From Takakia lepidozioides (taxonomy: Eukaryota; Plantae; Bryophyta), in contig CM060733.1 of the NCBI GenBank assembly GCA_030704615.1, forward strand, positions 23,622,001 through 23,686,000: a stretch of 64,000 bases of DNA. The letters run 5' to 3'. Below the pieces are notes generated by a model that made no database searches, was not told the origin of the DNA, and worked only from the letters and a program-made list of their open reading frames with translations. This document shows, one piece after another, positions 1 through 38,706 of this stretch. Position 1 is the first letter of the stretch. Every line of letters starts with the position of its first letter. A program made the translations under genes and the position numbers.

Positions 1-2231
1 GTGAAACGAATGACTGGATATGACTACATCCAAGGTAGCAGGTTTCCAGGGCAAGGCAGCGAATCCGATCGTTGTTACATTTTCAAAATGTCGACGTGTG
101 GGCCTGGGAGTGGAGTCGACTTGGTCACTCGCATGACAACTGGAAACTTGTCGAATGCTTGGGTGATGTTTGATCACATCAAGCGAATTACAAACCATCA
201 GTGGGTGACTATGGGTGCGCATGTTTATGACTATCACTCCAAGAGGCTCATGACGATTGCAATCTGCGAGATGAAAGGGGAGGACACACAGTCCGAGATG
301 CATCTGTGGGAGGGCATAAACGAGCAGATGGCAAGGGCGGGATTGCCAGAGCCCAATTTCAGGGGATTCATGGCAGACAACGCTCAGGCCAACTGGGCAG
401 CGGTGCGGCGTGTGTACGGTGAGGACCCCAATGTTCCAATGGAGGGGAAAGAGAGATCCTGTGGATTCCATTGGATGCAGAGTCTATCCCACTACACTAC
501 CAAATTTGTTGCTAGCTCATTCCAGGCTGAACACCGTGTCCTTTGTACGGCGTGGAAGGATGCACCCACATTTGATGACGCGGAGGTTAAGTTTGCTATC
601 ATCGAGGCTTGGTGGAACACGTCAGGTGCAGTGGAGACAACCAATCTGGGAGCATTGCACAGCTGGTTGGGGTGGTGGCATTTTCGGTATCGACAGTTCG
701 GACAGTACATGCGGGAGGTAGGCTGCTGTCAATTTCGTTCATTTGTCTTTCTGTTACGGACATTTCGATTGGTCCCTCACCGTTGTTTGTGTCCTTCTAG
801 GAGCGGTGCTTGGATTCCGACACGGACATGCCGAACACGAATATGGCAGAATCGGTCCACTCCTCCTGGCGAGCGTCTTCTGCCGCACATCTGGTGGACG
901 TAGTGACGGCCACAACGGAGGACATCGACAGAGCAATCATGCAGCAAGCCACGTACTACAAGTTCCTGAGCGGCAAACAATGGGGCTTTGGGCCGGACAG
1001 GGAGGAATTGTTGGTACGAACAGCTTCGAGGTCCAAGAATCCAGTGAAATGGGCGACAGCATTGCGAGAGAAGATCAAAGGGACGCCTCTGCACCGCAGA
1101 GGTGAACACCTAGAGGGGGACGTCCGGACTCGCCCTGTCAGGCGGAGGATTGAAGAGGAACCCGGGTGCGAAGAGGATTCCTGGAGATCCGACAGGAACA
1201 TTCGGACAGCACCTCGAGGTCCCGTCATGTTGCCGCACAATGTGTCTTCCAGCAGTGGAAGCCCAAGAAATTCCAGATCGCCGTCGCCTTCAACCGGGGA
1301 TTTCGTGCAACAAATTCCCACCGCTCCCTTGCCCCACATTCCGCCCGCTGTTATGCAGTATGGCCAAGCCATTGTGGAGACGACTGTGTCTGCCTCACAG
1401 TGGAGAATTGCTCGCACAAAGCCGTCGTTTCGAGGAAGGTGTTCCGCAATTCGTGTGGATACACGGCAACGTTGTTTAGAGATGATAAGGAGGAATCCAG
1501 ATGGGGCTGTCCCTGCTCCTACTTTTACAGGAAGATTTGTCCATGCAAAGTTTGCGGAGGCGACAACCACCCAGTTCTGGTTCTGCAGGCACGACATTAT
1601 GACTTGCGTGTATGGAAAGCCCAAGTACGGCATACAGACAATGCCAGAGGCTCCCCCGGTGTGGCCGGTGGAACCAGGCTGCGATCTGAGTCAGGTTGAG
1701 GCCGACGCCCTTACCGCCGCAGGATTTCGGATGGTGCAGCGCACTGACGTCCCCAGACAACCATTTCCGCTTCCACAGCCTCCACCACCGACCCCTGTGA
1801 GAGCAAGAACAATGGGACACGACAGCTCTAAGCATCCTACACACCGTTGGGGGAAACCGAAGAGGCGGCGACCTCCCTCAAAAGTGAACGAGACAAGGAT
1901 GGGGAATGCACTTCGGATGAACTGTACAATCCAGAGCTCGACAGAAGTGCCCCCACCAGGATTCGGGCGTGTGTATCAGATGGCCACGGCGGGCTCAGCT
2001 GTTCGCAATGAGGTGTACACCATCACCATTTCAGAATTACCCACCTGCAATTGCACCGACTTCCAGATCATGGCGAACAAGGGGGCATCATACTGCCCTT
2101 GCAAGCATTTGTACTACGTGTACCTAAAGAGACTCCGTTGTAATTCCACAACTCATCACTTCATACATGCACCAGGGTTGAGCCCCCAGGAGGTTCACAC
2201 TCTTCTGAATATGGATCCAGGGGACCAGTGA
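1..2231 (+). CDS. MULE-family DDE transposase with C-terminal SWIM zinc finger (5' partial; exons <1-717 and 801-2231)
   Basis: Motifs MFDH, FMADNAQA..AVRRVYG, CGFH (CxxH) and TNMAES, plus SWIM CNC..CKH. The phase-0 GT-AG intron at 718-800 joins ORFs 1..903 and 810..2231 in frame with no internal stops. Confidence 0.85.
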
Positions 2232-3009
2232 GCTTGGCTTGCGGTCCACATACAATGGTACGCCCATCCTTTTCGGATAGTAGAACTGTACTGCTGCCAG
2301 TACCTCAGACTCTGGCCACACAAAGGTCCGACATATGTCTTGCCTACCAGTAACCTGTTTTGATCGAACTAAGATATTACTATATCGTTCACTTGTTTCC
2401 ACGTGCATGTATTTTTGTATGTTGGAGGGTTCATGTTTTTCTGCTTTCCGAAAACTTGCTCTCCTCATTCGACCTCCGACAAGGAAATGCGGCGCCGAAT
2501 TTCCAAGTATCGTCGTAGGTACCCCCAGAGGCGGCCTTCGCCAACACCAAACCGCTCCGAAATTTCGCACGTGCGAACCCTAATGCGGCACCCTATTTCC
2601 CAGTTCAGTTGCAAACCTTTCCCGCCGAATACCCGAAGAAGACAGAATTGTGAAGTACTGCAGACTGTATTGGTGCAGACTCCATTGGTTCAATCGCGGC
2701 AAAAGGGTCAGCTTCATTCCAATGTTAAGGCATGTAAAACCGCGGAATACTCTATACAGGCCAGTATGCGACGTCCTTTTGCAGTGGAATACTGGATTTC
2801 CCGTTGCACGGTCACTTATTTCCATGAGCGGATCTATAAAACCATGAGCGGACTTGTTACTGACGACATATCTTCGCCGCATTACATGATCTGGAACGTC
2901 CAAAAACGGCAAGGTCAAATAAAAAACTATTATTTTAATACTTGTTTAATCTGCCGCATTTCCCAATTTGGAGGAGTCCGCTCATGAAATCCGCGTATCT
3001 TAGACTTCG

Positions 3010-3082
3010 GCTCACCGCTCATGCGGCTCATGCGGCTCATGGCTCATGGCTCATGGTTTCTGCTCATGAAATAGTAAACCTC
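3010..3082 (+). repeat. Terminal (TIR) region with GCTCATG subterminal repeats
   Basis: Tandem GCTCATG(CG) units followed by GAAATAGTAAACCTC. The reverse complement occurs at 11944 and a related sequence at 22211. Confidence 0.75.
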
Positions 3083-11754: not shown

Positions 11755-11882
11755 GCAATACTCCTTACAACTGCATTTGGCCAACAACTCCGAAACGAAC
11801 TTGGTGGCAGTGTGGCAGTCACCACACACCCGAAGATTCTTCACGAGATGTAGAGACATCCCTGCAGCTCATCAGCCCAAAA
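11755..11882 (-). pseudogene. DYW deaminase domain fragment (PPR editing-factor relic)
   Basis: Manual translation gives LVKNLRVCGDCHTATKFVSELLAKCSCKEYC, which matches the DYW C-terminus with an internal deletion. Confidence 0.8.
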
Positions 11883-12600
11883 CCTCGATTGTCCCACCAT
11901 TGACTGGGGTTAGAAAAGTTCCACAGCTTCTCCTCGTCTCTGTGAGGTTTACTATTTCATGAGCAGAAACCATGAGCCATGAGCCATGAGCCGCATGAGC
12001 CGCATGAGCGGTGAGCCGAAGTCTAAGACACGCGGATTTCATGAGCGGACTCCTCCAAATTTGGAAATGCGGCAGATTAAACAAGTATTAAAATAATAGT
12101 TTTTAATTTGACCTTGCCGTTTTTGGAAGTTACGGATCCTGTAATGCGGCGAAGATATGTCGTCAGTAACAACTCCGCTCATGGTTTTTTAGATCCGCTC
12201 ATGGAAATGAGTGACCGTGCAACGAGAAATCCAGTATACCACGGCAAAAGGACGTCGCATACTGGCCTGTATAGAGTTTCCGCGGTTTTACATGCCTTAA
12301 CATTGGAATGAAGCTGACCCTTTTGCCGCGACTGAACCAATAGAGTCTGCACAATTCTGTCATCTTCCAGTATTCGGCGGGAAAGATTTGCAAGTGAACT
12401 AGGAAATGCGGTGCCGCATTAGGGTTCGCACGTGCGAAATTTCTGGGCAGTTTGGTGTTGGTGAATGCCGCATCTACCAGTACCTACGACGTTACTTGGA
12501 AATGCGGCGCCGCATTTCCTTGCCGGGGGTCGAATGAGGAAAGCAAAGTTTGGGAGAGCAGAAAAACAGGAACCCTCCAACACACAAAAATACATGCATG

Positions 12601-15345
12601 TGGGGGCTCAACCCTGGTGCATGTATGAAGTGACGAGTTGTGGAATTACACCGGAGTCTCTTTAGGTACACGTAGTACAGATGCTTGCAAGGGCAGTATG
12701 ATGCCCCCTTGTTCGCCATGATCTGAAAGTCGGTGCAATTGCAGGTGGGTAATGGTGATGCAGGTGGTGCAATCTGAAATGGTGATGGTGTACACCTCAT
12801 TGCAAACAGCTGAGCCTGCCGTGGCCATCTGATACACACGCCCAAAGCCTGGTGGGGGCACTTCTGTCGAGCTCTGGATTGTACAGTTCATCCGAAGTGC
12901 ATTCCCCATCCTTGTCTCGTTCACTTTTGAGGGAGGTCGCCGCCTCTTCGGTTTCCCCCAACGGTGTGTAGGATGCTTAGAGCTGTCGGGTCCCATTGTT
13001 CTTGCTCTTACAGGGGTCGGTGGTGGAGGCTGTGGAAGCGGAAATGGTTGTCTGGGGACGTCAGTGCGTTGCACCATCCGAAATCCTGCGGCAGTAAGGG
13101 TGTCGGCCTCAACCTGACTCAGATCGCAGCCTGGTTCCACCGGCCACACCGGGGGAGCCTCTGGCATTGTTTGTATGCCGTACTTGGGCTTTCTATACAC
13201 GCAAGTCATAATGTCGTGCCTGCAGAACCAAAACTGGGTGGTTGTCGCCTCCGCAAACTTTGCATGGACAAATCTTCCTGTAAAAGTAGGAGCAGGGACA
13301 GCACCATCTGGATTCCTCCTTATCATCTCTAAACAACGTTGTCGTGTATCCACTCGAATTGCGGAACACCTGCCTCGAAACGACGGCTTTGTGCGAGCAA
13401 TTCTCCACTGTGACGCAGACACAGTCGTCTCCACAATGGCTTGGCCATACTGCATAACAGGGGGCGGAATCTGGGGCAAGCGAGCGGTGGGAATTTCTTG
13501 CACGGAATCCCCGCTTGAAGGCGATGACGATCTGGAATTTCTTGGGCTTCCACTGCTGGAAGTCACATTGTGCGGCAACATGACGGGCCCTCGAGGTGCT
13601 GTCCGAATGTTCCTGTCGGATCTCCAGGAATCCTCTTCGCACCCGGGTTCCTCTTCAATCCTCCGCCTCACAGGGCGAGTACGGACGTCCCCCTCTAGGT
13701 GCTCACCTCTGCGGTGCAGAGGCGTCCCTTTGATCTTCTCTCGCAATGCTGTCGCCCATTTCAGTGGATTCTTCGACCTCGAAGCTGTTCGCACCAACAA
13801 TTCCTCCTTGTCCGGCCCAAAGCCCCATTGTTTCCCGCTCAAGAACTTGTAGTACGTGGCTTGCTGCATGATTGCTCTGTCGATGTCCTCCGTTGTGGCC
13901 GTCACTACGTCCACCAGATGTGCGGCAGAAGACGCTCGCCAGGAGGAGTGCACTGATTCTGCCATATTCGTGTTCGGCATGTCCGTGTTGGAATCCAAGC
14001 ACCGCTCCTACAAGGACACAGACAATGGTGAGGAACCAATGGAAAGGTCCGTAATAGAAAGACAATTGCACGAAAATGACAGCATCATACCTCCCGCATG
14101 TACTGTCCGAACTGTCGATACCGGAAATGCCACCACCCCAACCAGCTGTGCAAGGCTCCCAGATTGGTTGTCTCCACTGCACCTGACGTGTTCCACCAAG
14201 CCTCGATGATAGCAAACTTAACCTCCGCATCATCAAATGTGGGTGCATCCTTCCACGCCATACAAAGGACACGGTGTTCAGCCTGGAATGAGCTAGCAAC
14301 AAATTTGGTAGTGTAATGGGATAGACTCTGCATCCAATGGAATCCACAGGATCTCTCTTTCCCCTCCATTGGCACATTGGGGTCCTCACCGTACACACGC
14401 CGCACCGCTGCCCAGTTGGCCTGAGCGTTGTTTGCCATGAATCCCCTGAAATTGGGCTCTGGCAATCCCGCCCTTGCCATCTGCTCGTTTATGCCCTCCC
14501 ACAGATGCATCTCGGACTGTGTGTCCTCCCCTTTCATCTCGCAGATTGCAATCGTCATAAGCCTCTTGGAGTGATAGTCATAAACATGCGCACCCATAGT
14601 CACCCACTGATGGTTTGTAATTCGCTTGATGTGATCAAACATCACCCAAGCATTCGACAGGTTTCCAGTTGTCATGCGAGTGACCAATTCGACTCCACTC
14701 CCAGGCCCACACGTCGACATTTTAGAAATGTAACAACGATCGGATTCGCTGCCTTGCCCTGGAAACCTGCTACCTTGGATGTAGTCATATCCAGTCATTC
14801 GTTTCACCTCCAGGATTGAGTGCATGTCCGACCCCCGGCCGAACTCCTGCTTGCAAGATACGATGTGATTCCGCACATTCGGACTACAAACGTGCGAGAC
14901 CGACTCCAACAGGTCAAGCATCTCCTCTTCGTTCAAGGGCACTCGGTCTGAACCATCTTCAGACATGATTTTGCCAAGAGCAATCTTGTGGGCTGCCTTC
15001 AGCTGAATCTGCTTTGGTTTGGCTCCGGGGCTCAATTTCACCTCCTCTTTTATGATGTCGTGTGCTTCCTGCACAGCCTCACGCATGTTGCCTCTCGCCA
15101 AGGGGTGGCAGTGGACCCCAACGTGTATACAAGCTCTAGTCAAGTCCGGGAGCAAATGGACAACGTAATATTGCTTGGCTCTGCACATGGACATGCACGT
15201 CGGTGGTTCTTTGCAATGTGCGCACTTGAAAGTACCCGCAGGAGCTTGGCTGGAGACAATGAATGGATGATGCATTGTGCCAGTCCAATCCGTCTCGTTT
15301 CTTTGCCCTCCTTTGGAAAGAAAGTGGAAGCAGGCGGGATTCAGG
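12601..15345 (-). pseudogene. MULE transposase pseudogene (copy B)
   Basis: Same protein as A plus an N-terminal Cys/His region (CAHC..C..HVGVHCHP). Intron at 14008-14090. Catalytic MAD is changed to MAN, there is a frameshifting duplication near 12750-12775, and both ends are deleted. Confidence 0.85.
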
Positions 15346-15605
15346 TTTCCGACATTCCAGCAAAATAAGGCACCGCATTTCCGCCCGGGTGAGACCTTAA
15401 CACTCTCCAGAACGGAAATGCGGTAACGCATTTCCATCCAGCAAGCATGGTATATGAAGGTGGAACGGAAATGCGGTACCGCACTTCCGTTCTGATTGAG
15501 AATCATGAACAAAGGGAACAGAAATGCGGCACCGCATTTCCGTCCGAGTCGCACTTTCCGACATTCCAGAACGGAAATGCGGCACCGCATTTCCGCCCGG
15601 GTGAG
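15346..15605 (-). repeat. Inverted segment of the 53-bp palindrome array
   Basis: Reverse complement of the 212-bp higher-order unit seen at 21447-21817. Confidence 0.85.
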
Positions 15606-18600
15606 AGGTGCCGGTCGGAAAACCGCCCAGCCCACATTGAGGCACTTGTTACAATGCCATCCACACATTATGACATGGCCCTTCAGATGTTGCGAATGAA
15701 AGCATAACGAGAGTTTGCAGAAAAGCATACAACAAGATTCTGCATACCTGTCCCACAGATGAGGTCGAGCACTGTGCCCTCCACGTCAGTGCATGTCTCC
15801 ATAATTGTCTGAATGAAGGCACGGCTCCGAGTGCGTGAATACCACAGGGGTTCAGTTGAAGTGAGGCTATGAGGGAGAAGTTCCGTGGGAACGTTGTTGA
15901 ACAGGACATCGTAATCGATGGGGTCGCAGTTCGGGTCAACCAACAATCCCTCCTTCCGGAAAGCAAAGGTGGAGTTCTCCTTCACAAAGCAGTATGCATC
16001 GAACTACTTCGTCTGCATACAAAGTGGGGGACGATTAGAAATCGAATGCGGCACCGCATTTCAAGACTCCTAAGAAAATGAAAGGACGAGTGCCAAGGTC
16101 GTAATTACCTTCTTCCCTTCCGACCGAAGGCCCAATGTGTTGATGCACGTCCACTTCTTCTTCATAATTGGGACGGCGCTCTTGCGGGTCCACTTCGCAA
16201 TTCCTGTCTGCGTATTTTTGCCTCTGCTCGCCAGGACAACCACACAGCCTCTGTCGTCCAACACCATGCGGGCGAGCCCGAATCCTTTCTTCCAAAAGTC
16301 CTCGGAGTACCTGTTCCAAGATGGCAAAGCTTGAAGTCCTTCCACAGGCTCTCCGTCTGGAATATCCAAGATGATCATATCGCAAGACCAATCGGTGGCA
16401 TTTCCGCCCCTCCTGCAATCCTTGTCTGCACACACCCTCTCAAGGAACAAGACCATCTTCAGAAACCCGGGGGTGTCGGAAGGCTCTTCGGCAGCCGCCT
16501 TCTTTAGTGCTCTGCCCTTCAGACCCTCCATGGTCTTCATGTATGCCAACTTGGTTGCCCGTCCATCCAAAGCCGCCAAGAAACTCTCATTGACACACTG
16601 GACTACTGTATCGGGATCCACTTTCGGCCTCTTCATTTCCACTGGCTCGAAAGGGTGCCCCCCCGGGGGGTTGAAGAGTGTCTTCTTTGCCGAGCCAGTT
16701 CTCGTCCCTCTCGTGACAACGGTGGGCACAGGGGATTTTGGCTCCGTCTCGGGGGGTGGGCTGGTTGCAAAGTCTCCATCGGAGTCCTCTTCCTCACCCT
16801 CTACCTGCACTATCTGTTTCTGCTTCTTCGTTTTCTTGGGTGTCACAACTGCTGCTCCTTGCTGCCGAGTCCGCTTCTTCGACCCCTTCTGTTGAGCCTG
16901 CATAGCTGCATCCACCGTCTTTTGTGCCATTTCAGCTGCCTTTCTGGATTGTTCCAGAGCAGCAGCTTCCTTTGCCGACTTTGGCCGAGCAGGGACACGT
17001 CTTTCCTTTCTCTTCTCTTCTGCTTTCGCGTGCAGATCTTTCTCAGACTCGTCAACAATTCCTCCAGACATGTCCAGGTACCACGGGCATCCAACCAGAT
17101 GCGCAGCATGCCATTGTTTTTGTATCTCGGGTGTGTAGACACAGCTTGGGCCCGCCACGGTCCAAGCCATGAAGAACGGGGGCTCTTGAGCCAGGGCCCC
17201 TGTCTGAAGAAGCACGTATTTCATATACTTGCAGGGCAGTCAGCATGCGTGAGCAAAAGTTGAGACCAACGTACTCGTAGAGTGCAACCGAAAACATAAA
17301 ATGCGAATGCGGTGCCGCATTTCCCAGACAAACCTCATTACCAGGCTTTGCATACAAGGACAGCTGGGCTTCACCTGTAAACAATTCGCATTGCAGCTTT
17401 TCCTGCTCCCTCCTGATGTGTAAACTCCACGCTCATTCTTGCTGTTTGCAGCTCCCTGGCGAAGAGGTTGTCCTTGTAAGCACATCTGAAACGTGTCACG
17501 TAGTCTTCCAATGTCTGTGTTCCATCCCATTTGACGTACAAGCCAAACAAATTTGTATGCATAACGACTTGCTCCTTCGCATTCGTCATTACCTGCGATT
17601 CCCACATGCATTGTCACGTAGCAGTTCAGGGAATTCATTTCAGAAAAGCAAATCTAGGGAAGTACCTTGAATTACCTGGAACCACCAAGTCATGCGGTTG
17701 AGCCACACATCCACTGCAGGGTCGGAAACTTCGAGTGGAAAAGACCACATTGTCCTTATACTCTCCGATGCATTCCAGATCGACAGCCACCATGTCTGCC
17801 ATTTCCGATCCAATGTCAGGAGCAGGAAGAAGAGTGGCTATTGCTAGGAAGGAACTTCAGTGAATTGAAACATCACCTTCTCTTTCGCTTCAACACATGC
17901 CGTTGAGAGGTGATGCAGTTTCTCCAACTGCATGGTCGGCTGCATGGCCCGAGAATAGTGTTTTGCAATCTCGGGGATGAAGTCCTTTCCAAGTGCCGGA
18001 TCTGCAATGGCCACCAGCTTCACAAGCTTTGACTTGTATTTCGTTCTGGACTTGACCCCGGCTTCCTTCAAGTGCTCAATCAATGACTGCAACGTTTTGA
18101 CCTGCCCCTCACTTTCCATGAAGAAGCGTTTGGCATGGGCCAAATCCAGCTTGATGTTTGACTGCCAACAAAAACATGCAGAAGCGTTACATTCGATTCA
18201 TGTGGAAAGATTACCGGAAATTGAGGAAGGATGAGCAGAGGGAAATGGGAGGACGACTTACTTCGTATATGACCTCCACCATTCCATCCATAGTGAGACG
18301 ATACCATGTCCGGTCAGTTTTTGCCACGGCTTTCTGAATGAGCTCGGGCTCCAACATTTCCGCGAACATGTGCGGATCAGTGAGACCAGTTTTCCTCACC
18401 CTGTACAGCATATGTGCCATGTGGGTATGCACGTACGCATTTTCAGTGACCCTGCAAGGCACACTCTTCAGTTCAGTCCACGAAAGCACGGAAACAAAAC
18501 AGATTGGAAACTGAAATGCGGCACCGCATTTCGAACGTGCATGGGAGGGTATGAGTATCTTACGAGTTGAGGTCCGCCATGGCATTCTTGAGCAGGGAGG

Positions 18601-19774
18601 AGTCTGCCGCCTTCACCTTGAGGATGACACACTCCACCATGTAATGCCAGCCAATGTGCTTGGCATGGTTCTGCTTGATGTACTCCCACCAGGCGAGAAG
18701 TCGGTGATTCCCGTCCCACACAAAGAACATTTTACCCGACATATGGCCGAAGTCGGGATCACCCTTCAGTGTTGCCTCGAATTCGTCGTTGCGGGTGTGC
18801 CAGTGGGTATCCCATGTTGACAATTCCTCCGCAGTGGGTCCACGAGATTCGCCGTCCTCATTCTCAAGGGAAACGTAGAAGGCTGGCAAACCTAGACGGT
18901 ACCCTTCTCGAAATGCGAACTTGAGCTTATCCACATCTCCGGGAAGTGCCTGCCTGACGATGGAAAGGGAGACCATGCGACAGAGTGGGATTCGAAGAGT
19001 CCGCTGGAATACCCTGCTGCCCAGAACTCTGCCAATGCTACTATGTGTCTCCTCCAACATTGTATCCGCTGCACTTTGGAATTCCTCCGGAGACATTTCT
19101 GCTGGTGGCGGCAGGGGCTAAGCAGCTTGAGCATCCCCAACTGGAGCTGCACTCTGGGGAATCTTTGCGGACAATTGTGCAATTGCAGAGGCCTCCTCCG
19201 GGCCTTCAGTGGTCAGGTCTTCCTCAACTGTGGTCAGGTCTTGCTGAGAACGTTGAGAGGCAGCACCCTCCTCCGGTACCAGATCTCCGGTTGATCCCAT
19301 TGGCTTCGCTGCAGCAGGTTGGAAATCAAGCAGGAACTGGGCTTTAGCTCGTGGAATCGGTTTTGAAGACTGCTCTGCCCTCCCCCTGATTGCCTTGTGC
19401 TTCCTCATTCTTGCAGGTGAAGGTGTCTGCTGCAATTGAATCTGCTTCATTCGCCTGGGTGGGGGGGAAACGGCCTGGTCCGGTTCAGAAACAAGTTGAA
19501 GGACGGGCTGCTTCTTCTTCGTCTTTGCTGGAGAAGGGCTAGACCCCTGCTGGCGATTCTCCATGACCTTTGAAGGCGAGTCGCTCTCTAGGGCTTTGAA
19601 CTGCAAGGACTTGCCCTTGGAAGCCGCGTCCTTGAAACGCACAGGACTAGGACCGGCAGGAAGACCCGTGCTCGCGGATCGGCTGGGTGTGCGTGCTGCA
19701 GCTAGCTCCACGGACTCTTCGGATTCCTGCGATCCCTCCAGCACGTCCACCTTTCCGGTTAGGCATGCAAACAT
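15606..19774 (-). pseudogene. ParB/Srx-like domain plus beta-class amino-MTase-like gene, copy B (multi-exon, damaged)
   Basis: FFVWDGNHRLLAW at about 18690-18730, DMIILDIPDG at about 16353-16382 and TVLDLICGTG at about 15747-15775. TAG at 19118 where copy C has CAG, acceptor near 15646 mutated to AA, truncated at 15606. Confidence 0.7.
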
Positions 19775-20376
19775 CTTCTGCAGTCAAGTCTCCTAGCATA
19801 CAGTCTAAGAATTGCAGAAGAAAAATGAGGCGGGTTTCGGTGCTCGATCAGCTGGCGAATCCCGATAGCACGGAGCTCTCACTGGTGGTTGGGTTGCCTG
19901 CGTGGCCTGATGCTGCGAGATGGCAATCTCCTCCTGTACACGCATCTGCTTCCTCCCCTTCGGCATTGGCCTACGTCCGAAGTACAATTTTCGGAGCTTG
20001 CGACGATGTCTCTTCTCTGGTGCACGCACTCCCTCCCTCTCAGGTTCGAGCATAAGAAGAACAGAGACAGGGAAAAGGGGCAAAGAGTGCAGATGGAAAG
20101 GGCGCGAGAGGGGTGACTGAGGAGACACGACAAAAGCAGATGAAACGGTGGTGATGCAGCACTTGGGTTCGAAAGGGTTGGAGGAAAGTGTCTCCTCGTG
20201 GACTTTGCATCATTACGAAATTCGAATCGTTCAGGATACGTCTGCCGTCCGAAAAACAAACATCATTATCCAACGGTCAGGCCGCGCCGCCTCATGCCAC
20301 TTCAGTCAGATAGAGTGCAGACACATGCCGCAATTCCGATGCTCCACGTGTTCAAATTTGGAGTTGGAGTGAAAAT

Positions 20377-21817
20377 GCGAATGCGGCGCCGCATTTCCGT
20401 TAAGTACCATCACAGAGCTACACATCCGTGCTTGTTGGAAGAAAATGCGGCACCGCATTTCCGTTCCACCTTCACATACCTTAGTTGTTGAACGGAAATA
20501 CGGTGCCGCATTTCCGTCCCACAGCTCAATGTATGAGATACAAAAGGGAAATGCGGCGCCGCATTTCCGTTCAGGAATGTCGAAACGTGCGATTCGGACG
20601 GAAATGCGGCACAGCAATTCAGTTCCCGTGGTTCATGATTTTCAATCTGAAAGGAAATGCGGTACCGCATTTTTGTTCCAAAGCTCTATGCCTCACATAC
20701 AAAAAGGAAATGCGGCGCCGCATTTCCGTTTTGGAATGTCGGAAGGTGCGACTCCGACGGAATTGCTGTACCGCATTTCAGTTCCGATGTTTCACGATTT
20801 TTCATAATAACGGAAATGCGGTACCGCATTTCCGTTCTGGAGAGTATGAAGGTCTCACCCGGGCGGAAATGCGGTGCCGCATTTCCATTCTAGCTTGTGA
20901 GGGAGGTGCGACTCGGATGGAAATGCGCTGCCGCATTTCAGTTCCGATGGTTCACGATTTACAGTCAGAACGGAAATGCGGTACCGCATTTCCGTTCTGG
21001 AGAGTATGAAGGTCTCACCCTGGCGGAAATGCGGTGCCGCATTTCCGTTCTAGCTTGGGAGGGAGGTGCGACTCGGATGGAAATGCACTGCCGCATTTCA
21101 GTTCCGATGGTTCACGATTTACAGTCAGAACGGAAATGCGGTACCGCATTTCCGTTCTGGATAGTATGAATGTCTGAAGCGGTCGGAATTGCGCTGTCTC
21201 AAGCGATCGGAATTGCACTGGGCTCCATGCATCAGATACAAATCGGAAATGCGGCTCCGCATTTCCGTTCTGGAATGTCGGAAAGTGCCACTCGGACGGA
21301 AATGCGGTGCCGCATTTCTGTTCCCGTTGTTCATAATTCTCAATCAGAACGGAAATGTGGTACCGCATTTCCGTTCCACCTTCACATACCGTGCTTGCTG
21401 GATGGAAATGCGTTACCGCATTCCCGTTCTGGAGAGTATTAAGGTCTCACCCGGGCGGAAATGCGGTGCCGCATTTCCGTTATGGAATGTCGGAAAGTGC
21501 GACTCGGACGGAAATGCGGTGCCGCATTTCTGTTCCCTTTGTTCATGATTCTCAATCAGAACGGAAATGCGGTACCGCATTTCCGTTCCACCTTCACATA
21601 CCGTGCTTGCTGGATGGAAATGCGTTACTGCATTTCCGTTCTGGAGAGTGTTAAGGTCTCACCCGGGCGGAAATGCGGTGCCGCATTTCCGTTCTGGAAT
21701 GTCGGAAAGTGCGACTCGGACGGAAATGCGGTGCCGCATTTCTGTTCCCTTTGTTCATGATTCTCAATCAGAACGGAAATGCGGTACCGCATTTCCGTTC
21801 TGGAGAGTGTTAAGGTC
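20377..21817. repeat. Array of about 27 palindromes GGAAATGCG-N4-CGCATTTCC at a 53-bp period, with 160-bp and 212-bp higher-order units
   Basis: Starts at 20441, 20494, 20547, 20600, 20653, 20706, 20759, 20812, 20865, 20919, 20972, 21025, 21079 and 21132, then every 53 bp from 21245 to 21775. Confidence 0.95.
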
Positions 21818-22210
21818 GGGGGTTGCTATTCCATATGCACAGGTTGCGTGCATGCATGCACAAAATCCCTTATTATATATGCATGTGACAAATTTGTATG
21901 CACACATTGTAGATTGTATGCAGTGGAGTTATATAACATAGAATATGACGTATTTATTGCATATGCAAATGTTACATCATATGTATATAGAAAAAAATAA
22001 AATAAAAATCTTAGCTAACAAAATCAGTAGTCAATGGTCAAAGTTGCATGTGACCACTAACTCCAACTAATGCACCACCTTAAACTGAAGAGAATACAAG
22101 ATCCCTGGCCAAAGTAATAGTTTGCAAACTTGTATTCAAGGAAAACAGTTTCATATTAACCAAAATATGGACTTTTGTACTAACAAATGCATATGTGTCA
22201 TGTTTGGAAC
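21818..22210 (+). mobile_element. AT-rich fragment starting with a related TIR (GGGGGTTGCTATTCCATATG)
   Basis: The first 20 nt align with the termini at 22211 and 11944. Confidence 0.45.
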
Positions 22211-22664
22211 GGGGGCTGCTATTTCATGAGCCATGAGCCATGAGCCATGAGCAGAGTCGTAAGTGTGGAAAAAAACATGAGCAGCACTATTTTCCGGAAA
22301 TGAGTGTCCGCGGGAATAGGGTTTAGGGTGCCACGGTCATAGGGGGAGAAGGACCTCCCGATGAAGGAGGTTCGGCAATGTTATTTAGAATTATATATTG
22401 AAAGGCAATGTTACGCGAATGGTAGGGTGGTACTGCTCTGTACAATGGGGGCCCATTTCAGCCTACCAGCCACTTGCAAAATCCACCCACACACCCAATC
22501 CCAAACAAAATGAGCAATGACGCATTCTGGGAACGATGGACACAGAATAGAATAAAAAGAGGGCACAATGAGGTTTTTATTGATCCACATGAATTGCATT
22601 TGAAGCACGTCTACTGTGCTGATTGTGCCATCAAATCTTGAGCCCTGTGCTTACTGAATACAAG

Positions 22665-23339
22665 TCACGTTGTCAATGGGACTTCGACTGCTCTCAGAAC
22701 TAGCTCATGAGTCATGGGGCTCCTCCATGTAAAGTCGATTGCAGCCGTTGTACCGCCCCTAGTGATGTTCACCACAATGTCCTGCCCTTCAATCATACCA
22801 CCATCGAATATGGAAATCTTCACGTTTTCGTCGTCCACACCAATGCGAATGTCCCCATACAATGGAGAAGAGGAGCGCACTCCTCGAGGAGAATAGGTCT
22901 CTCCGATGGAGTCCACCCACGTCCAGTGGCAGCAGTTCCACCGCAACAGCATAGCAGTGCGCCTTCTTCTGCATGGGTGACCGTCGTAGCTGGGAAATTC
23001 GGAATCGAGGATGCGCAGGAGCCACGGACTCCTCAGACCAAGATCGTCACCCCGCTCGAAGGCGTAGTGGCCTACGATATACTCAAAAGCCACCAATGTT
23101 TCCACAATCGAACCAGTATCTTCTGTGTAATCTGTGTACCAGATAACAATGTCTCCCGATGTGGCCGAATACATTGCATAATCGATGCCTCCAAAGGGGC
23201 AGTCGTCCCGATTCCGGAAGCACGGCATCCTTGCAAAGGAGGACCTGAGGACGACTTGGATGCCGATGACCTTGCGGACAGCTACGAAGCCCTTAGATTT
23301 TGGAAAAGATACGAAGCGGAAGAGCAGTCCGGCCTCCAA
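22665..23339 (-). CDS. Hypothetical transposon cargo protein (224-aa open frame, possibly with an upstream exon)
   Basis: Open frame with globular-protein-like composition. No family recognised; a 244-aa antisense ORF overlaps it. Confidence 0.4.
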   Translation of the reverse strand: MEAGLLFRFVSFPKSKGFVAVRKVIGIQVVLRSSFARMPCFRNRDDCPFGGIDYAMYSATSGDIVIWYTDYTEDTGSIVETLVAFEYIVGHYAFERGDDLGLRSPWLLRILDSEFPSYDGHPCRRRRTAMLLRWNCCHWTWVDSIGETYSPRGVRSSSPLYGDIRIGVDDENVKISIFDGGMIEGQDIVVNITRGGTTAAIDFTWRSPMTHELVLRAVEVPLTT

Positions 23340-23842
23340 AATGGAGCATCTGGGTCACACGTACCCACCGACGGAGGTGGAACGTGTTCATCACGCCAGC
23401 GGTGGATGAACCCATACATCTTTCTCATCAACAAGTTATAGTTTGAGATCTGCCACCGAAGTCCATCCCCCCAGATGGAAATTCGGCGCCGCATTTACAT
23501 CGAAGAGGGGATGGACTTCGTCGTGTCCAGTGGCTATCGGCCCACCTGGCAGTGAGTGCCCATAGTTTGCGCAGCAGGGTAGGAAACTGAAACGGCTACA
23601 TTCATGCAGCAGCCAATCTTCATCGGTCCAGGATCCTGTACGGGGGAAATTTAAATGTGCCCTGGAGTGTGCCCTGGAATGTACCTCACTTCTGTATGAC
23701 TGTGTTTCATTGTGTTGAATAACTCTCGGATTTGGCCCACTGTTTACAAATTGATGTCTCATTTCTACAATTTGTCTGTCCGGTTGAATAAAGCAGAGTA
23801 ACCGGTATGTGAGTCATGTGTCAAGAATATACCAGAGTAACG

Positions 23843-24140
23843 CCATGTCGGACATTGAAATGCGGCACCGCATTTCCATGTCGGCATGGAAATGTGGGGC
23901 CGCATTTCCATGTCGGCTTGGAAATGCGGCGCCGCATTTCCATGTCGGCATCGAAATGCGGCGCCGCATTTCCATGTCAGCATCGAAATGCGGCACAGCA
24001 TTTCCATGTCGGACATCGAAATGCGGCACCGCATTTCCATGTCGGACATCGAAATTCGGCACCGCATTTCCATGTCGGACATCGAAATGCGGCACCGCAT
24101 TTCCATGTCCGACAAGAAAATGCGGTGCCGAATTTCCGTC
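23843..24140. repeat. Nine tandem 32-33-bp units, each containing the family-1 palindrome
   Basis: Unit CATGTCGG(A)CATCGAAATGCGGCACCGCATTTC. Further dispersed palindromes continue to about 24732. Confidence 0.92.
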
Positions 24141-24920
24141 CAGGTACACGAAATACCAACACGGGTCTATAAATTGATCAGAAAACGAGGTTGGCATTGC
24201 AAATGCGGCGACGCATTTCCAGCTTGGCAATGGAAACTTCTTTTTGGACAAGGGAATGCGGTACCGCATTTCCGTCCAACACTTCGAAAAGTGCACCTAT
24301 TTCCGACCAGCGCGATGGAATGCGTTACCGCATTTCCGAGAGAGGGTCTGCAGATGGACAAATTGCGATGTCCGTTCTGGAAATGCGGCACCGCATTTCC
24401 ATGTCCGTCATCGACTTTTTTTTACAATGGAATGCTGTGCCAATTTTTGCTGATGGGTCTGCAGTTCGAACAACGACCATCCCCAATATGGAAATGCGGC
24501 ACCGCATTTTCAATCCCGCCATGTCGGCCTCCTTGTGCGACCTCCTTGTTCGACCTCTGTAAGCGTTGTCGCATCCATGCAATGAGCGGGAGAGGCCAAA
24601 ACTGGCGTGTGGACAAAGGAAATTTTGGAAATGCGGCACCGCATTCCCAATTCAGATTACTTTTTACTATGCCAACATTGAAATGGAAAAATTAGTCCCT
24701 CCCCTGTCTTGGAAATGCGGTGCCGCATTTCCAAAAGAGGTTCTTAGAGTTGCCAAAATTTTGGAAATGCCCTGACCCATTTCTGATTTTGGGAGCGTCC
24801 TGGTTTGGGCGATTGTGTGGCTGGAATGCACACTGGAGAGGGGTCACGAATGTCGGGCAGAATTTTCTTTATATACTCTGGAAGAGAATTTACATTTACA
24901 GAGACTTCATTAAAATTCTA

Positions 24921-27900
24921 TTAATCTTGAAAATCATCCGAATCCTCATCCTGTTCTAGACTGTCCTGCTCCTCCTCCACCCCCTCAGTGCCTCTCTCAT
25001 CTCCAGCGGACTGCTCGTTGGCCAGGCTTTCGAAAATCCCATCTTCCCCTTGCGGAACTGTCCATCTCACCTCCGTTGGGTCGTCTTCCTCCCTGTCTGC
25101 GTCGCTCTCATCCGCTGAATCACATATGTACTTTCGTACCCGTCTACCTGTCTGAGCTGCTGCCAACTCTTTCCTTATCCTTCTGTCCTCCCTAGCCCTC
25201 TCCAAAATCTGCTCTACTTTACTGGGATTCTCACTTCTTCTAATCGCTGTATTTGCGAGTTTAGCTGCATAACTAGGAAGGGAGTAGTCCCTCACCGGGC
25301 TCGTCATGAAGTCGGCCCTCGCAAAGAACGGGACATTCTTCCTGGCAGGAAGTGTAGGCCCTACATGTTTCGACACGGACCCTGCAATCCTGCACATGAC
25401 AATCATCAACGAGACTAATGAGAACCACAGTCGGGAAATTCCTTTGACATAAATGACCCAGAAGGCTTTGCAAACTTACAATGTTTGCACTCACTCGTAT
25501 TCCGGGTTCTCCTCTGCATCAATGTCCACTGTGTCTTCCTCGGACTCCGACGAATCCGAGGAGACTTCCGCTCTGTCGGGAGCCTTCACATTCCGTTGCA
25601 GCCCCTCCAGATGGGATCCCCACACGGATGAATCCTCCTCGTAGGCAAAGAGGTGCCGGTCGGAAAACCGCCCAGCCCACATTGAGGCACCTGTTACAAT
25701 GCCATCCACACATTACCACATGGCGCTTCAGATGTTGCGAACTACATCCTAACGAGAATTTGCAGAACAGCAGAGATCAAGATTCTGCATACCTGTCCCA
25801 CAGATGAGGTCCAGCACTGTGCCCTCCACGTCTGTGCATGTCTCCATAATTGTCTGAATGAAGGCAGGGCTCCGAGTCCGTGAGTACCGCAGGGGTTCCG
25901 TTGAAGTGAGGCTATGAGGGAGAAGTTCCTTGGGAACGTTGTTGAACAGAACGTCGTAATCGAGTGGGTCGCAGTTTGGGTCAACCTTTCCTCCCTCCTT
26001 CCGGAAAGCAAAGGTGGAGTTTTCCTTCACAAAGCAGTATGCATCGAACTGCTTCGTCTGCATACACAGGGGGAAAACGATTAGAAACCGAATGCGGCAC
26101 CGCATTTGAAAGCACCCAAGCAAATGAATGGACGAGTGCCAGTGTCGTAATCACCTTCTTCCCTTCCGACCGAAGGCCCAGTGTGTTGATGCACGTCCAC
26201 TTCTTTTTCAGAATCGGGACGGCGCTCTTGCGGGTCCACTTCGCAATTCCTGTCTGAGTGTTTTTTCCTCTGCTCGCCAGGACAACCACACAGCCTCTGT
26301 CGTCCAACACCATGCGGGCAAGCCCGAATCCTTTCTTCCAAAAGTCCTCCGAGTACCTGTTCCAAGATGGCAAAGCTTGCAGTCCTTCCACAGGCTCTCC
26401 GTCCGGAATATCCAAGATGATCATATCGCAAGACCACTCGGTGGCATTTCCGCCCCTCCTACAATCCTTGTCTGCACACACCCTCTCAAAGAAGGAGACC
26501 ATATTCTGAAATCCTGGGGTGTCGGAAGGCTCTTCGGCAGTCGCCTTCTTCAGTGCTCTGCCCTTCAGACCCTCCATGGTCTTCGTGTATGCCAACTTGG
26601 CTGCCCGTCCATCCAAAGCCGCCAAGAAACTCTCATTTACACACTGGACTACAGTTTCGGGAGCCACTTTCGGCCTCTTCATTTCCACCGGCTCGAAAGG
26701 GTGCCCCCCTGGGGGTTGAAGAGTGCCTTCTTTGCCGAGCCAGTTCTCGTGCCTCTCGTGACAACGGTGGGCACAGGGGAGGCAGCCTGCGTTTGGGGGG
26801 GTGGGCTGGTTGCAAAGTCTCCATCGGAGTCCTCTTCCTCACCCTCTTCCTGAACAGGCTGTTTCTGCTTCTTCGTTTTGGCGGGTGTCACAACAGCTGC
26901 TCCTTGCTGGCGAGTCCTCTTCTTCGACCCCTTCTGTTGGGCCTGCACAGCTGCATCCACCGTCTTTTGTGCCATCTCAGCTGCCTTTCTGGATTCTTCC
27001 AGAGCAGCAGATTCCTTTGCCGACTTTGGCCCAGCAGGGACACGTCTTTCCTTTCTCTTCTCTTCTGCCAAGGCGTGCAGATCTTTCTCAGACTCGTCAA
27101 CAATACCGCCAGACATGTCCAGGTACCACGGGCATCCAACGAGATGCGCGGGATGCCATTGTTTCTGCATCTCGGGTGTGTAGACACAGCTTGGGCCCGC
27201 CACGGTCCAAGCCATGAAGAACGGGGCTCTTGAGCCAGGGCCCCTGTCTGAAGGAGCACGTATTTCATATACCTGCAAGGCAGTCAGCATGCGTGAGCAA
27301 AAGTTGAGACCAACCTACTGGCAGAGTGCCACCGAAAACATAAAATGCGAATGCGGTGCCGCATTTCCGAGACAAACCTCGTAACCAGGCTTCGCATACA
27401 AGGGCAGCTGTGCTTCACCTGTAAACAATTCGCATTGCAGCTTTCCCCGCTCCCTCCTGATGTGTAAACTCCACGCTCCTTCTTGCAGTCTGTAGCTCTC
27501 TGGCGAAAAGGTTGTCCTTGTACGCACATCTGAAACGTGTCACGTAGTCTTCCAATGTCTGTGTTCCATCCCATTTGACGTACAAGCCGAACGAATTTGT
27601 GTGCATTACGACTTGCTCCTTCGCATTCGACATTACCTGCGATTCCCAAATCCATTGTCACGTAGCAGTTCAGGGAATTCATGTCAGAAAAGCAAATCTG
27701 GGGAAGTACCTTGAATTACCTGGAACCACCAAGTCATACGGTTGAGCCACACATCCACTGCAGGGTCGGAAACTTCCAGTGGAAAAGACCACATTGTCCT
27801 TATGCTCTCGGATGCATTCCAGATCGACAGCCACCGTGTCTGCCATTTCCGATCCAATGTCAGTGGCTGGAAGAGAGTGGCTATTGCTAGGAAGGAAATT

Positions 27901-29863
27901 CAGTGCATTGAAACCTCACCTTCTCTTTCGCCTCCACACATGCCGTTGAGAGGTGATGCAGTTTCTCCAATTGCATGGTCGGCTGCATGGCCCGAGAATA
28001 GTGTTTTGCAATCTCGGGGATGAAGTCCTTTCCAAGTGCCGGATCTGCAATTGCCACCAGCTTCACAAGCTTTGACTTGTATTTCGTTCTGGACTTGACA
28101 CCGGCTTCCTTCAAGTGCTCAGTCAATGACTGCAACGTTTTGACCTGCCCCTCACTTTCCATGAAGAAGCGTTTGGCATGGGCCAAATCCAGCTTGATGT
28201 TTGACTGCCAGCAAAAACATGCAGAAGCGTTACATTCGATTCATGTGGAAACATTACTGGAAATTGGGGAAGGATGAGCAGAGGGAAATTGGAGTACGAC
28301 TTACTTCGTATATCACCTCCACCATTCCATCCATAGTGAGACGATACCATGTCCGGTCTGTTTTTTGCAACGGCTTTCTGAATGAGCTCAGGCTCCAGCA
28401 TTTCCGCAAACATCTGCGGATCAGTAAGACCAGTTTTCCTCACCCTGTACAGCATATGTGCCATGTGGGTATGCACGTACGCATTCTCAGTGACCCTGCA
28501 AGGCACACTCTCCAGTTCAGTACACGGAAGCACGGAATCAAACCAGAATGGAAACCGAAATGCGGCACCGCATTTCGAACGTGCTAGGGAGGGTATGAGT
28601 ATCTTACGAGTTGAGGTCCGCCATGGCATTCTTGAGGAGGGAGGAGTCTGCCGCCTTGACCTTGAGGATGACACACTCCACCATGTAATGCCAGCCAATG
28701 TGCTTGGCATGGTTCTGCTTGATGTACTCCCACCAGGCGAGAAGTCGGTGATTCCCGTCCCACACAAAGAACATTTTTCCCGACATATGGCCGAAGTCGG
28801 GATCACCCTTCAGCGTCGCCTCGAATTCGTGGTTGCGAGTGTGCCAGTGGGTATCCCACGTTGACAATTCATCGGCAGTGGGTCCACGGGTTTCGCCGTC
28901 CTCAATTCTCTATGGAAACGTAAAACGCTGCCGATCCCAGACGGTACCCTTCTCGAAATGCGAACTTGAGCTTATCCACATCTCCGGGAAGGGCCTGCCT
29001 GACGATGGGAAGGGAGACCATGCGACAGAGTGGGATTCGAAGAGTCCGCTGGAATACCCTGCTGCCCAGAACTCTGCCAATGCTACTGTGTGTCTCCTCC
29101 AACATTTTATCCGCTGCACTTTTGAAATCCTCCGGAGACATGTCTGTAGGTGCCGGTAGTGGCTGAGCAGGTGGAGCATCCTCAACTGGAGCTGCACTCT
29201 GGGGCCTGTGTGCGGGCAATTCTGCCATTGCAGAGGCCTCCTCCGGGCCTGCTTGCTCATCGGTGGTGAGGTCTGGCTGCGAACGTTCAGCGGCAGCACC
29301 CTCCTCCGGTACCAAATCTCGATCAACGGTCGATCCCATTGCCTTCGCTGCAGCAGAGTCGGCCCCAACATCTGCAGGCGGGAAATCCTCCAGGAACTGA
29401 GCTTCAGCTCGTGGAAGCGGTTTTGCGGGAGATTGTTCGCCCGTCGCCCTGATTGCCTTCTGCTTCCTCATCCTTGCAGGTGAAGGTGTCTGCTGCAATA
29501 GAATCTGTCTTCTACCCTGCTGCTTCATTCGCGTTGGGGGGGTGAATCGGCCTGAGCCGGTTCAGAAGCCAGTAGAGGGACGGGCTGCTTCTTCTTCGAC
29601 TTTGCTGGAGAAGGGCCCGACCCCTGCTGGCGATTCTCCATGATCGAAGAACGCGAGTCGATCTCTGAGACTTTGAACTTGCCCTTCGAAGACGCGTCTT
29701 TGAATCGCAGAGGGCTAGGCCCGGCAGGAGTCCCCGCGCTCGGGGATCGGGTGGGTGTACGTGCTGCAGCTAGCTCCTCGGACTCTTCCTGCGGCTCTTC
29801 GGATTCCTGCGATCCCTCCAGCACGTCCACCTTTCCTGTTAGGCATGCAAACATGTTCTGCAT
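24921..29863 (-). pseudogene. ParB/Srx-like domain plus beta-class amino-MTase-like gene, copy C (full span, several single-base frameshifts)
   Basis: DGNHR at about 28745-28760. Splicing the GT-AG intron 25691-25792 gives TVLDLICGTGASMWAGRFSDRHLFAYEED. Acidic C-terminal tail ends at 24921. The frameshifts may be assembly errors. Confidence 0.7.
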
Positions 29864-30475: not shown

Positions 30476-31582
30476 TGCGAATGCGGCGCCGCATTTCCGT
30501 TAAGTACGATCACTCTGCTACACATCCGTACTTGTTGGAAGAAATGCGGCACCGCATTTCCGTTCCACCTTCACATACCTTAGTTGTTGAACGGAAATAC
30601 GGTGCCGCATTTCCGTCCCACAGCTCCATGTATGAGATTCAGAAGGAAATGCGGCGCCGCATTTCCGTTCCCACTTCACATACGTTAGTTGATGAATGGA
30701 AATGCCGTGCCACATTTCCGTTCGGGAAAAGTAGAGAGTCTCACCTGGACAGAAATGCGGTGGCCTGTCGCATTTCCGGTTGGAAAGGTTGAAGGTCTCA
30801 CATGGATGGAAATGCGGCAACACATTTCCGTAGCACAGCTCCAGGCCGAATATACAAACGAAAATGCGGCGCCGCATTTCCGTTCGAGAATGTCGGAAGG
30901 TGCGACTCGAACGGAAATGCGGTGCCGCATTTCTGTACCCGTTGCGCACGATTTTCAGTCAGAATGGAAATGCGGTACCGCATTTCCGTTCTTTACAGTA
31001 TTAACGTCTGACGCTGGCGGAAATGCCTTCCCGCATTTTCGTTCCACAGCTCCATGCCTCACATACAAAACGGAAATGCGGTGCCGCATTTCCGTTTGGA
31101 ATGTCGGATGGTGGACTCCGACGGAAATGCGGTACCGCATTTCAATTCCGATGTTCAGGATATTTCATCAGAACGGAAATGCGGTGCCGCATTTCCCTTT
31201 TAAATCTAACACTCCGTTCTGGAATGTTGGAGGTGCGACTCGGATTGGAAATGCGCTGCCCCATTTCAGTTCCGATGGTTCACGATTTTCAGTCAGAACG
31301 GAAATGCGGTACCGCATTTCCGTTCTGGAATGATGGTAAATGCGACTCGGATGGAAATACTTTGCCGCATTTCAGTTCCGATGGTTCACGATTTTCAGTC
31401 AGAACGGAAATGCGGTGCCGCATTTCCGTTCTGGGATGAAGATGGGTAGGTGCGTGACTCGATGAAAATACGGTGCCCCGCATTCAGTTCAAGATAGTTC
31501 ACGCGATTTCAGTCAGAACGGAAATGCGTGCCGCATTTCCGTTCTGGATAGTGTGAATGTCTCAACCGGTCGGAATTGCGCT
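30476..31582. repeat. Second copy of the 53-bp palindrome array
   Basis: Colinear with 20377-21190, with more small indels toward the contig end. Confidence 0.9.
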
Positions 31583-32082
31583 NNNNNNNNNNNNNNNNNN
31601 NNNNNNNNNNNNNNNNNNNNNNNNNNNNNNNNNNNNNNNNNNNNNNNNNNNNNNNNNNNNNNNNNNNNNNNNNNNNNNNNNNNNNNNNNNNNNNNNNNNN
31701 NNNNNNNNNNNNNNNNNNNNNNNNNNNNNNNNNNNNNNNNNNNNNNNNNNNNNNNNNNNNNNNNNNNNNNNNNNNNNNNNNNNNNNNNNNNNNNNNNNNN
31801 NNNNNNNNNNNNNNNNNNNNNNNNNNNNNNNNNNNNNNNNNNNNNNNNNNNNNNNNNNNNNNNNNNNNNNNNNNNNNNNNNNNNNNNNNNNNNNNNNNNN
31901 NNNNNNNNNNNNNNNNNNNNNNNNNNNNNNNNNNNNNNNNNNNNNNNNNNNNNNNNNNNNNNNNNNNNNNNNNNNNNNNNNNNNNNNNNNNNNNNNNNNN
32001 NNNNNNNNNNNNNNNNNNNNNNNNNNNNNNNNNNNNNNNNNNNNNNNNNNNNNNNNNNNNNNNNNNNNNNNNNNNNNNNNNN
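31583..32082. other. Assembly gap (500 N)
   Basis: Run of N. Confidence 1.
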
Positions 32083-37544: not shown

Positions 37545-37687
37545 CCCTCAACCAGTGACAGGACACAGGCTCGCACACGGAGTCCTTCACGAGACTCTAA
37601 CCGTTAGAAGGGTGCTCGCTCACAAAGGGTTACAAATCCCAGACAGTAAACCGTGAGGACACGACTTTTTGAGAAGGGAAGGGGTAA

Positions 37688-38706
37688 TGTTAGAGGACTG
37701 TCTGGGACTTAGGCACTTTTACGGATCTGTGGGGTACCCTTAATTTTTGCACAGACTGAGACCAACAGGAGCCTTAGGGGTGACAGCAGCGCACTTTAGG
37801 GGGGGGGTTACACAGCCTGTCACAGCCAACACAGTCCGTCACAGTCCGACACAACCGACACAGCCCGTCACAGTCCGACACAGCCCGTCACAGCCAACAC
37901 AGCCCGTCACAGTTCGACATAGTCGACACAGCCGCCACAGCCAGACACAGCCGTCACAGCCAATCACAGCCCGACATAGCCCGTCACAGCTCGACACAGC
38001 CGCCACAGCTTCGCACAGCCCTACACAGCCCGACACAGCCTTACACAGCCAGTCACAGCTTCGCACAGCTAGGGAATAGTTATCAATGGCAGGGAACGAC
38101 TGTGAGGGAACGACATCTGCAAAAGGAACGTGTACTACAGGGATGACGGTTAGCCAGGAAAGCGGTTAGAACAGCTTGTAGGGGGATAAAGTCAAGAACG
38201 GGGACTTCTGGGGAATCACTACTGGAAGGACTTTGGGGGGGGGATCACAACTTGGAAATGAAGCAGAGAGCGCATCTCTGAGCAGAAAGAGGGAGAGCAC
38301 GAAGTAGGAGGAGAACGATCTGTTGATACTTACTGAATGCAAGAAGTAGAGTTGTAATGTAGAGCAGAATAGAGACACCATGGCTTCAGCCTGATACTTG
38401 ATAGATATTAATCTGATACATACTTCATACTCACACTGTGTAGAGAGACCTGAGTGAAGCTGTGGAATGAATGGATGGAACTTGATAGATTTCTGAAGCA
38501 AACTGATACTTAATTGCAGATAGTAAGGTAACTCGCTAACATGAATGCGGGAAGGAGTACAAATAGGAAACACCCCCATGATACACTAGTTGTAGGTCAT
38601 GACTGATTGTTCTGAGCGGGCTGAGTGCTTAGAGATTTCCAACTCTTCTATCTTGGAGTTCCCACCTCGGATAGTGAAGGGATGGGTGAGTAAAAGCCTC
38701 GCAACA
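37688..38706 (+). repeat. 3' LTR of a same-family element in the opposite orientation
   Basis: TGTTAGAGGAC...GCAACA, preceded by PPT GAGAAGGGAAGGGG at 37671-37684. Inverted copy of 36566-37544. Confidence 0.85.

Follow-up and report, generated by a model that had tools for sequence, protein, structure and literature searches.

The window, meaning the whole stretch of 64,000 nucleotides of Takakia lepidozioides DNA that was analysed, carries a minus-strand gene in which a ParB-like domain is fused to a domain with the probable fold of the beta-class amino-methyltransferases, and this gene is likely an accessory gene of a MULE transposon (Table 1). The methyltransferase domain, whose catalytic motif is altered, is maintained by purifying selection. 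Except where copy B is named, the description below refers to copy C of the gene.

Table 1. Coordinates in the window of the ParB-like–methyltransferase gene, its copies and the transposon that likely carries it.
Position	Strand	Feature	Remark
1..3080	+	Second transposase copy (3' part) and element right end	
12601..15345	-	MULE-type transposase (D, D, CxxH, E, SWIM)	Adjacent to copy B through a rearrangement
15604..20370	-	Copy B of the gene	Identity about 93%; gene disrupted and cut off
20377..21800		Palindrome array of copy B	
22211..22260	+	Probable left terminus of the element	Short imperfect inverted repeat common to the transposase-side end, then short subterminal repeats
23856..24732		Second cluster of the 22-bp palindrome, downstream of the gene	Some copies spaced 32-33 bp apart
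25491..25690	-	Terminal exon with a helix, a strand with an acidic end (motif II position), an acidic tail and the stop	
25691..25792	-	Intron, 102 nt, GT..AG, in the last Gly codon of motif I	Equivalent intron in L002
25793..26057	-	Methyltransferase exon 2: R-x-x-S stretch before a helix, most of motif I	
26058..26154	-	Intron, 97 nt, GT..AG	Contains one element palindrome; equivalent intron in L002
26155..27272	-	Long exon in which the middle region ends, followed by a low-complexity linker and the N-terminal methyltransferase half	Methyltransferase half from about 26460 down
26401..26412	-	Motif IV position	DIPD replacing (D/N/S)PP(Y/F/W)
27419..28495	-	Four middle exons	Modelled as mostly helical in a relative; two introns absent from a contig
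28608..29130	-	ParB/Srx-like domain	DGNHR at 28759-28745; 1-nt insertion at 28905
reaching about 30130	-	5' part of the gene	Approximate
30477..31582		Array of 22-bp palindromes with GGYRCC core, upstream of the gene	About 53-bp spacing; runs into the gap 31583-32082

The methyltransferase motifs named in the original prediction are present, all on the minus strand, the motif I-like stretch beginning at 25811, and so is the GT..AG intron proposed to split motif I. A second intron, lying between codons, is also required, and when both are removed 254 open codons run up to the stop at 25491. The related locus L002 has GT..AG introns at both equivalent sites together with an intact-looking domain, and the alignment with the relative P0045 breaks at the same two points. 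Spliced across the last junction, the sequence scores 41 against P0019 (24 when unspliced), above all 500 shuffles (maximum 36), and 36 against P0046 (20 when unspliced), which is below the shuffle maximum of 41. Upstream of the domain, copy C contains four indels of 1 nt (26710, 27222, 28361 and 28905), of which 26710, 27222 and 28361 are absent from contigs of runs X3 and X4 and are therefore copy-specific changes or assembly errors; when the indels are read as X and seven GT..AG introns are removed, one open frame of 897 codons runs from the ParB core up to the stop. None of the runs is recorded as RNA; in a contig of X1, whose RNA origin is only guessed, the two middle introns at 27631-27715 and 27839-27920 are exactly absent, suggesting that some copy is likely transcribed and spliced. 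Removal of either methyltransferase intron was seen in none of the run contigs examined, and one X2 contig retains part of the first of them.

Searched on their own, the window exons match no methyltransferase in Pfam, in the PDB sequences or in PHROGs, so the assignment of this domain rests on relatives. A full HMMER scan with exon 1 returned 19 of them, annotated Adiantum proteins included, and other searches added proteins from Selaginella and Riccia. A ParB-like motif and a motif IV region occur within one annotated protein in a fern (P0019) and in Selaginella (P0005, P0025, P0048 and P0052), which supports the predicted fusion of methyltransferase and ParB-like exons, and the model of the window gene is collinear from the ParB core to the end with P0019 (pairwise E 6e-13) and with P0046 (2e-9). 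An Atlas model of the fern protein P0019 (aa 470-704) matches PF01555 clusters with TM 0.67-0.72, the best two containing ParB_N in 46% and 89% of their members. The modelled domain of Selaginella P0046 (pLDDT 60), the two halves of which are badly packed (rmsd about 16 A), gave 82 Foldseek matches at E<=0.001, with M.BceJIV (7.6e-8), M1.HpyAVI and CcrM at the top and N4CMT also among them, and P0046 also matches PHROG 67, a phage DNA methyltransferase family (E 3.5e-5). The motif order IV...I...II, a circular permutation, is the same in the window, L002, P0046 and P0019, as had been claimed for the domain. Together with the structure matches of P0019 and P0046, this supports, by way of the relatives, the predicted Rossmann fold of a beta-class amino-methyltransferase (PF01555) for the window domain. 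Other searches were less specific: a wide structural search (VIA) recovered the class I fold with the beta class not singled out (best Z 9.2 for aTrm11, 7.0 for MboIIA), and the full-length model of P0019 (pLDDT 51) had no Foldseek match at E<=0.001, its top rows being of the beta class. The Pfam gathering cut-off of PF01555 (26.7 bits) was reached by none of the sequences, P0046 scoring best with 13.8, P0045 scoring 13.7 and the window exons having no match. A word-index search with exon 1 found no match, a profile weighted on this exon found no methyltransferase in the PDB, and tblastn against phages gave weak DNA methylase matches (E 0.04-0.7 among the 20 of 134 matches listed). A match of exon 1 to the Q-beta coat was rejected as chance.

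The N-terminal domain is likely of the ParB type. Its DGNHR stretch, which follows a hydrophobic strand and which we take to be a GxHR-type nucleotide-binding motif, is invariant in all seven aligned ParB-like sequences, and one relative only, P0026, matches PHROG 1033 (ParB-like, E 0.013) and TIGR03187 (DGQHR, E 0.005). The domain has no match in Pfam or the PDB, its profile retrieved no ParB structure from the PDB, and a search of genome contigs found no prokaryotic ParB relative. The matches of this profile to eS25 were rejected, as was the single viral match, L081, which is off-frame and inside a portal gene. In P0001, a relative of this domain, the Atlas features of aa 75-260 adjoin fungal DUF3723 clusters (score 0.96) and unnamed cnidarian clusters. 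DUF3723 is described as a conserved cargo gene of fungal Starships (10.1101/2021.12.13.472469), and there are hints that it is itself ParB-like and lies within a wider family of mobile-element proteins.

The altered motif IV is present as had been claimed, with DIPD identical in copies B and C, but the alteration is family-wide and not peculiar to this copy. Across the 23 family sequences surveyed, the first residue is Asp in 22 and Asn in one, the second is hydrophobic in all 23, the third is Pro in 22, and the fourth is Asp or Glu in ten, Thr, Ser or Asn in nine and Phe in four; the first Pro of the canonical motif occurs in none of them, and an aromatic residue in the four that read DLPF. 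The motif reads DMPD and DLPD in Selaginella, so the acidic fourth residue is old. Motif I, the acidic residue at the motif II position and R-x-x-S are kept in the window, L002, P0046 and P0019. The Asp of an N-terminal GD motif found in several relatives is not evident in the window copy, where the alignment is uncertain. When copies B and C are compared, two exons of the domain have pN/pS values of 0.06 and 0.23 (0.14 combined) and the ParB core one of 0.10; because the D/N-hydrophobic-P-x motif is shared across the family and the domain is under purifying selection, DIPD is not a product of decay. The aromatic residue of the canonical motif IV stacks on the target base, and its loss cripples enzymes of the M.TaqI type. 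As the window reads DIPD where a canonical enzyme has (D/N/S)PP(Y/F/W), the domain, in spite of its beta-class fold, is not to be filed as an active PF01555 enzyme. Locus L002 has an apparently intact methyltransferase region (2768-3756, reading DIPE) with both introns, which is suited to biochemistry.

That the gene is carried by a MULE, as originally predicted, is supported by a divergent transposase in related loci. A metagenome scan for the ParB-like domain was followed up on the best 80 of 199 loci (43 clusters). Among these, 26 loci extend 3.5 kb or more downstream, and 22 of them have a methyltransferase match there on the same strand; no locus has one on the opposite strand. A transposase match occurs in eight of the 21 loci with at least 6 kb upstream, always upstream and on the opposite strand, five of the eight being found with the window's own transposase and three, weaker, with locus-derived queries. 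In the window the transposase residues, including an N-terminal zinc finger, were read by eye (SWIM E 0.063, no MULE Pfam match), and the pattern D, D, CxxH, E plus SWIM is presumably the MULE transposase signature. Copy B has a stop three codons into its second methyltransferase exon and an altered last acceptor, and its gene end is deleted by the junction at 15604, where an inverted match of 260 bp (15346-15604 vs 21445-21708) marks the rearrangement of the transposase arm and copy B, with the break inside the palindrome array. Because the assembly gap at 31583-32082 follows the array of copy C, the window holds no intact element, and none of the run contigs bridges transposase and accessory gene across the array. 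The element ends have a short imperfect inverted repeat in common; an 8-11-bp target duplication, as expected of a MULE, would be readable only in an intact copy. The contigs of run X3 that carry the transposase, the methyltransferase and the left end have depths of 62.5, 63.2 and 61.3; depth is not copy number, and these near-equal values fit co-amplification of the three parts.

Several further sequences accompany the element. In its left arm, a third reading frame of about 230 codons (22665-23813, minus strand), possibly with an upstream piece, has no Pfam match and no counterpart in related loci, and is partly covered by a contig of run X1. A second sequence resembling the left end (21818-22200), possibly a small non-autonomous derivative, directly follows the array of copy B, and a small, very abundant repeat (11792-11945), for which runs X1 and X2 show very high contig depth and numerous loose ends, lies beside the element end. 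Elsewhere, a Gypsy-like LTR retrotransposon with a C-terminal PHD-type finger occupies 2939-9620 on the plus strand, with short frames at about 5550-6480 that, read by eye, resemble a C5 cytosine methyltransferase fragment with an ENV-like motif; C5 cytosine methyltransferases have been reported from some streptophyte retrotransposons. Two LTR-like sequences stand head to head at 36570-38701 and make up a large imperfect inverted repeat that has short tandem repeats.

The 22-bp palindrome occurs in 73 copies in the window, upstream and downstream of the gene and inside three of its introns, and is absent from two flanking stretches outside the elements. Its arms are nearly fixed and its YR centre varies (TG 23, CA 18, TA 17, CG 12, other 3), a variation that may simply be CpG decay of GGCGCC. 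Related loci have palindromes of about 20 bp in which the GGYRCC core is common and the arms are lineage-specific. Palindromic arms were counted around GGYRCC-like cores in 43 related loci: they flank 71 of the 468 cores close to the gene and 15 of the 440 at a distance, while 20 shuffles gave 3-16. Both the definition of the core and the limits of "close" were set after the data were seen, and the loci are related to one another, so that the comparison is not a clean statistical test. With the strict GGYRCC core the count is 24 of 102, thirty other palindromic hexamer classes remaining at or below 7% and one rare class giving 2 of 7; two or more palindromes occur in 15 of the 43 loci. A first, unbiased count was modest (near vs far: GGCGCC 7 vs 0, GGCACC 8 vs 4, TTGCAA 11 vs 6). 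The window has this core in common with the L003 lineage and with a larger group, and identity to the ParB domain of the window does not exceed about 45% in these. Arm types cluster on the ParB tree, a pattern not counted as co-evolution because kin share labels and the arms were assigned by eye.

CpG observed/expected ratios are 0.70-0.75 in the element genes and 1.3-1.4 in the arrays, while two retrotransposons in the window have 0.49 and 0.20. This contrast fits protection from 5mC, although the youth of the element or coding constraint could also give it, and the substitution spectra are mixed (CG-context transition rate vs CHH of 0.033 vs 0.023 between copies B and C, and of 0.025 vs 0.007 between the transposase copies), so that they do not show such protection.

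The reading placed first here, which we give an even chance of being correct, is that the protein binds the GGYRCC palindromes of its own element with little or no methyl transfer and shields the element from 5mC silencing. A constant core with variable arms, an array between divergent genes and a protein in two parts together point to self-recognition. Both beta-class enzymes and ParB proteins dimerise. The protein would do the same, its pair of methyltransferase folds reading the constant 6-bp core and its helical middle region the lineage-specific arms; the bound array between the two genes would keep host 5mC silencing away, and the element could then express its transposase, a role like that of VANC in VANDAL elements. 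Catalytically dead amino-methyltransferases of transposons have a precedent in DIRS1 (PMC4738411). The palindromes could instead be bound by the transposase.

It is possible, if on the unlikely side, that the protein is a working amino-methyltransferase whose active site is a variant one. By marking the element's own palindromes it would block host 5mC or license the element. The motif IV Asp, the second Pro and the SAM-site motifs, kept from Selaginella to the window, are equally expected of such an enzyme, four members have the aromatic residue, and the constant 6-bp palindromic core resembles a restriction-modification target. In CcrM and N4CMT, the ring amine is contacted by the first side chain of the motif and a main-chain carbonyl (PMC10406627), and the hydrophobic residue of the family motif would still supply this carbonyl. 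Against activity, the base-stacking aromatic is missing in 19 of the 23 sequences, the fourth position varies (D, E, T, S, N, F), and the GD-motif Asp, within its uncertain alignment, is not evident. Only G and C are constant in GGYRCC, which would make 4mC the most plausible product of an active enzyme and more likely than 6mA if the core is its target. A fuller version, in which MULEs of non-seed land plants encode an active D-hydrophobic-P-(D/E) enzyme that places 4mC on the GGYRCC core, with the ParB-like half specific for the arms, appears doubtful; if true, it would set a bacterial-style self-marking against plant 5mC silencing and give land plants a second source of 4mC, one borne by transposons.

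Less probable again is a structural helper of transposition instead of an epigenetic factor, a ParB-like clamp on the palindromes that would pair the short-repeat ends or load the transposase in the manner of MURB or TnpA. The short imperfect inverted repeat at the element ends, the presence of palindromes near both ends as well as inside, and the invariant GNHR would suit such a role, which leaves unexplained the selection that keeps a SAM-binding fold and does not account for the densest array lying between two promoters. That the gene is a captured host gene or fragment, passive cargo of the Pack-MULE type, is suggested by its spliceosomal introns and is very improbable, given that loci whose ParB domains are no more than about 40% identical have the divergent layout too, that purifying selection acts in a multi-copy element, and that element palindromes lie inside the introns themselves.

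Binding with shielding, the reading preferred here, can be set beside several known systems. The original prediction knew of no plant MULE carrying such a methyltransferase, and no earlier account from land plants was found, but the design is in print for algal transposons, a red-alga Mutator included, which makes the novelty lower than first thought. Among the literature matches listed, most subscription papers lying outside the search, there was no description of the fusion family in land plants, and no named algal protein was among the relatives from the homolog searches. What is new is that the fusion occurs in land plants, that its catalytic motif is altered and that the GGYRCC core is conserved, the algal fusion design being already known. 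The design is extended to land plants, with named relatives in Selaginella, Adiantum and Riccia; the GGYRCC core with its lineage-specific arms is a candidate target, for which self-binding or self-methylation can be tested with one protein and one oligonucleotide, and the family raises the question of amino-methyltransferase function without a canonical PPY. Related literature includes 10.1101/2021.02.12.428880, PMC6446971, PMC12344493 and 10.64898/2026.08.24.746577.

The closest design is that of Sola1-1_Ec32 from Ectocarpus, in which a single protein of 1104 aa with a ParB-like and an N4C/N6A methyltransferase domain is encoded opposite the transposase and has been proposed to bind and modify its own element; similar proteins in green and red algae are cited in the same paper (PMC12477816). 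The protein described here is of similar size, with 897 aa counted from the ParB core and a further N-terminal region, and the likely carrier is a plant MULE instead of a brown-algal Sola1, the two being compared by description. In red algae, Plavaka transposons encode PAG2 (PF01555 and SET) and PAG3 (ParB-like and 2OG oxygenase), with homologs in Chondrus Mutator elements and tandem inverted repeats beside the ParB gene (bioRxiv 10.1101/2025.02.11.637652). Here too a methylase and a ParB-like domain ride on a DNA transposon, whereas in PAG2 and PAG3 they belong to separate genes with SET and oxygenase partners, of which no family match was found on the pieces scanned here. Likened by architecture, the algal ParB–methyltransferase accessory proteins appear to have the same make-up as the window gene, namely both domains, a position opposite the transposase and inverted-repeat arrays.

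Among enzymes, CcrM, M.BceJIV, M1.HpyAVI, M.MboIIA and the phage ParB_N–methylase fusions share with the domain the IV-before-I order, the fold and an N-terminal ParB-like partner, while the D-hydrophobic-P-x motif, the introns, a long helical and linker insert and scores below the Pfam cut-off set it apart from PF01555 enzymes. DN4MT1 of Marchantia and N4CMT of Adineta likewise have a beta-class fold in a eukaryote, but they are host genes with an intact SPPY and shown activity, and the homolog searches gave no close relationship to them. Methylases fused to ParB-HTH have been described in chlorophytes and chytrids, and land plants are said to have few such enzymes (PMC4738411). Finally, VANC of the Arabidopsis VANDAL MULEs is also an accessory protein of a MULE, whose tandem target repeats are specific to the element and change from one related element to the next; its anti-silencing action has been shown, whereas here such an action is proposed, and no methyltransferase or ParB-like domain is described for it in the available text (PMC5735166). 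If the protein described here lifts silencing, it would constitute, beside VANC, a second anti-silencing system in plant MULEs.
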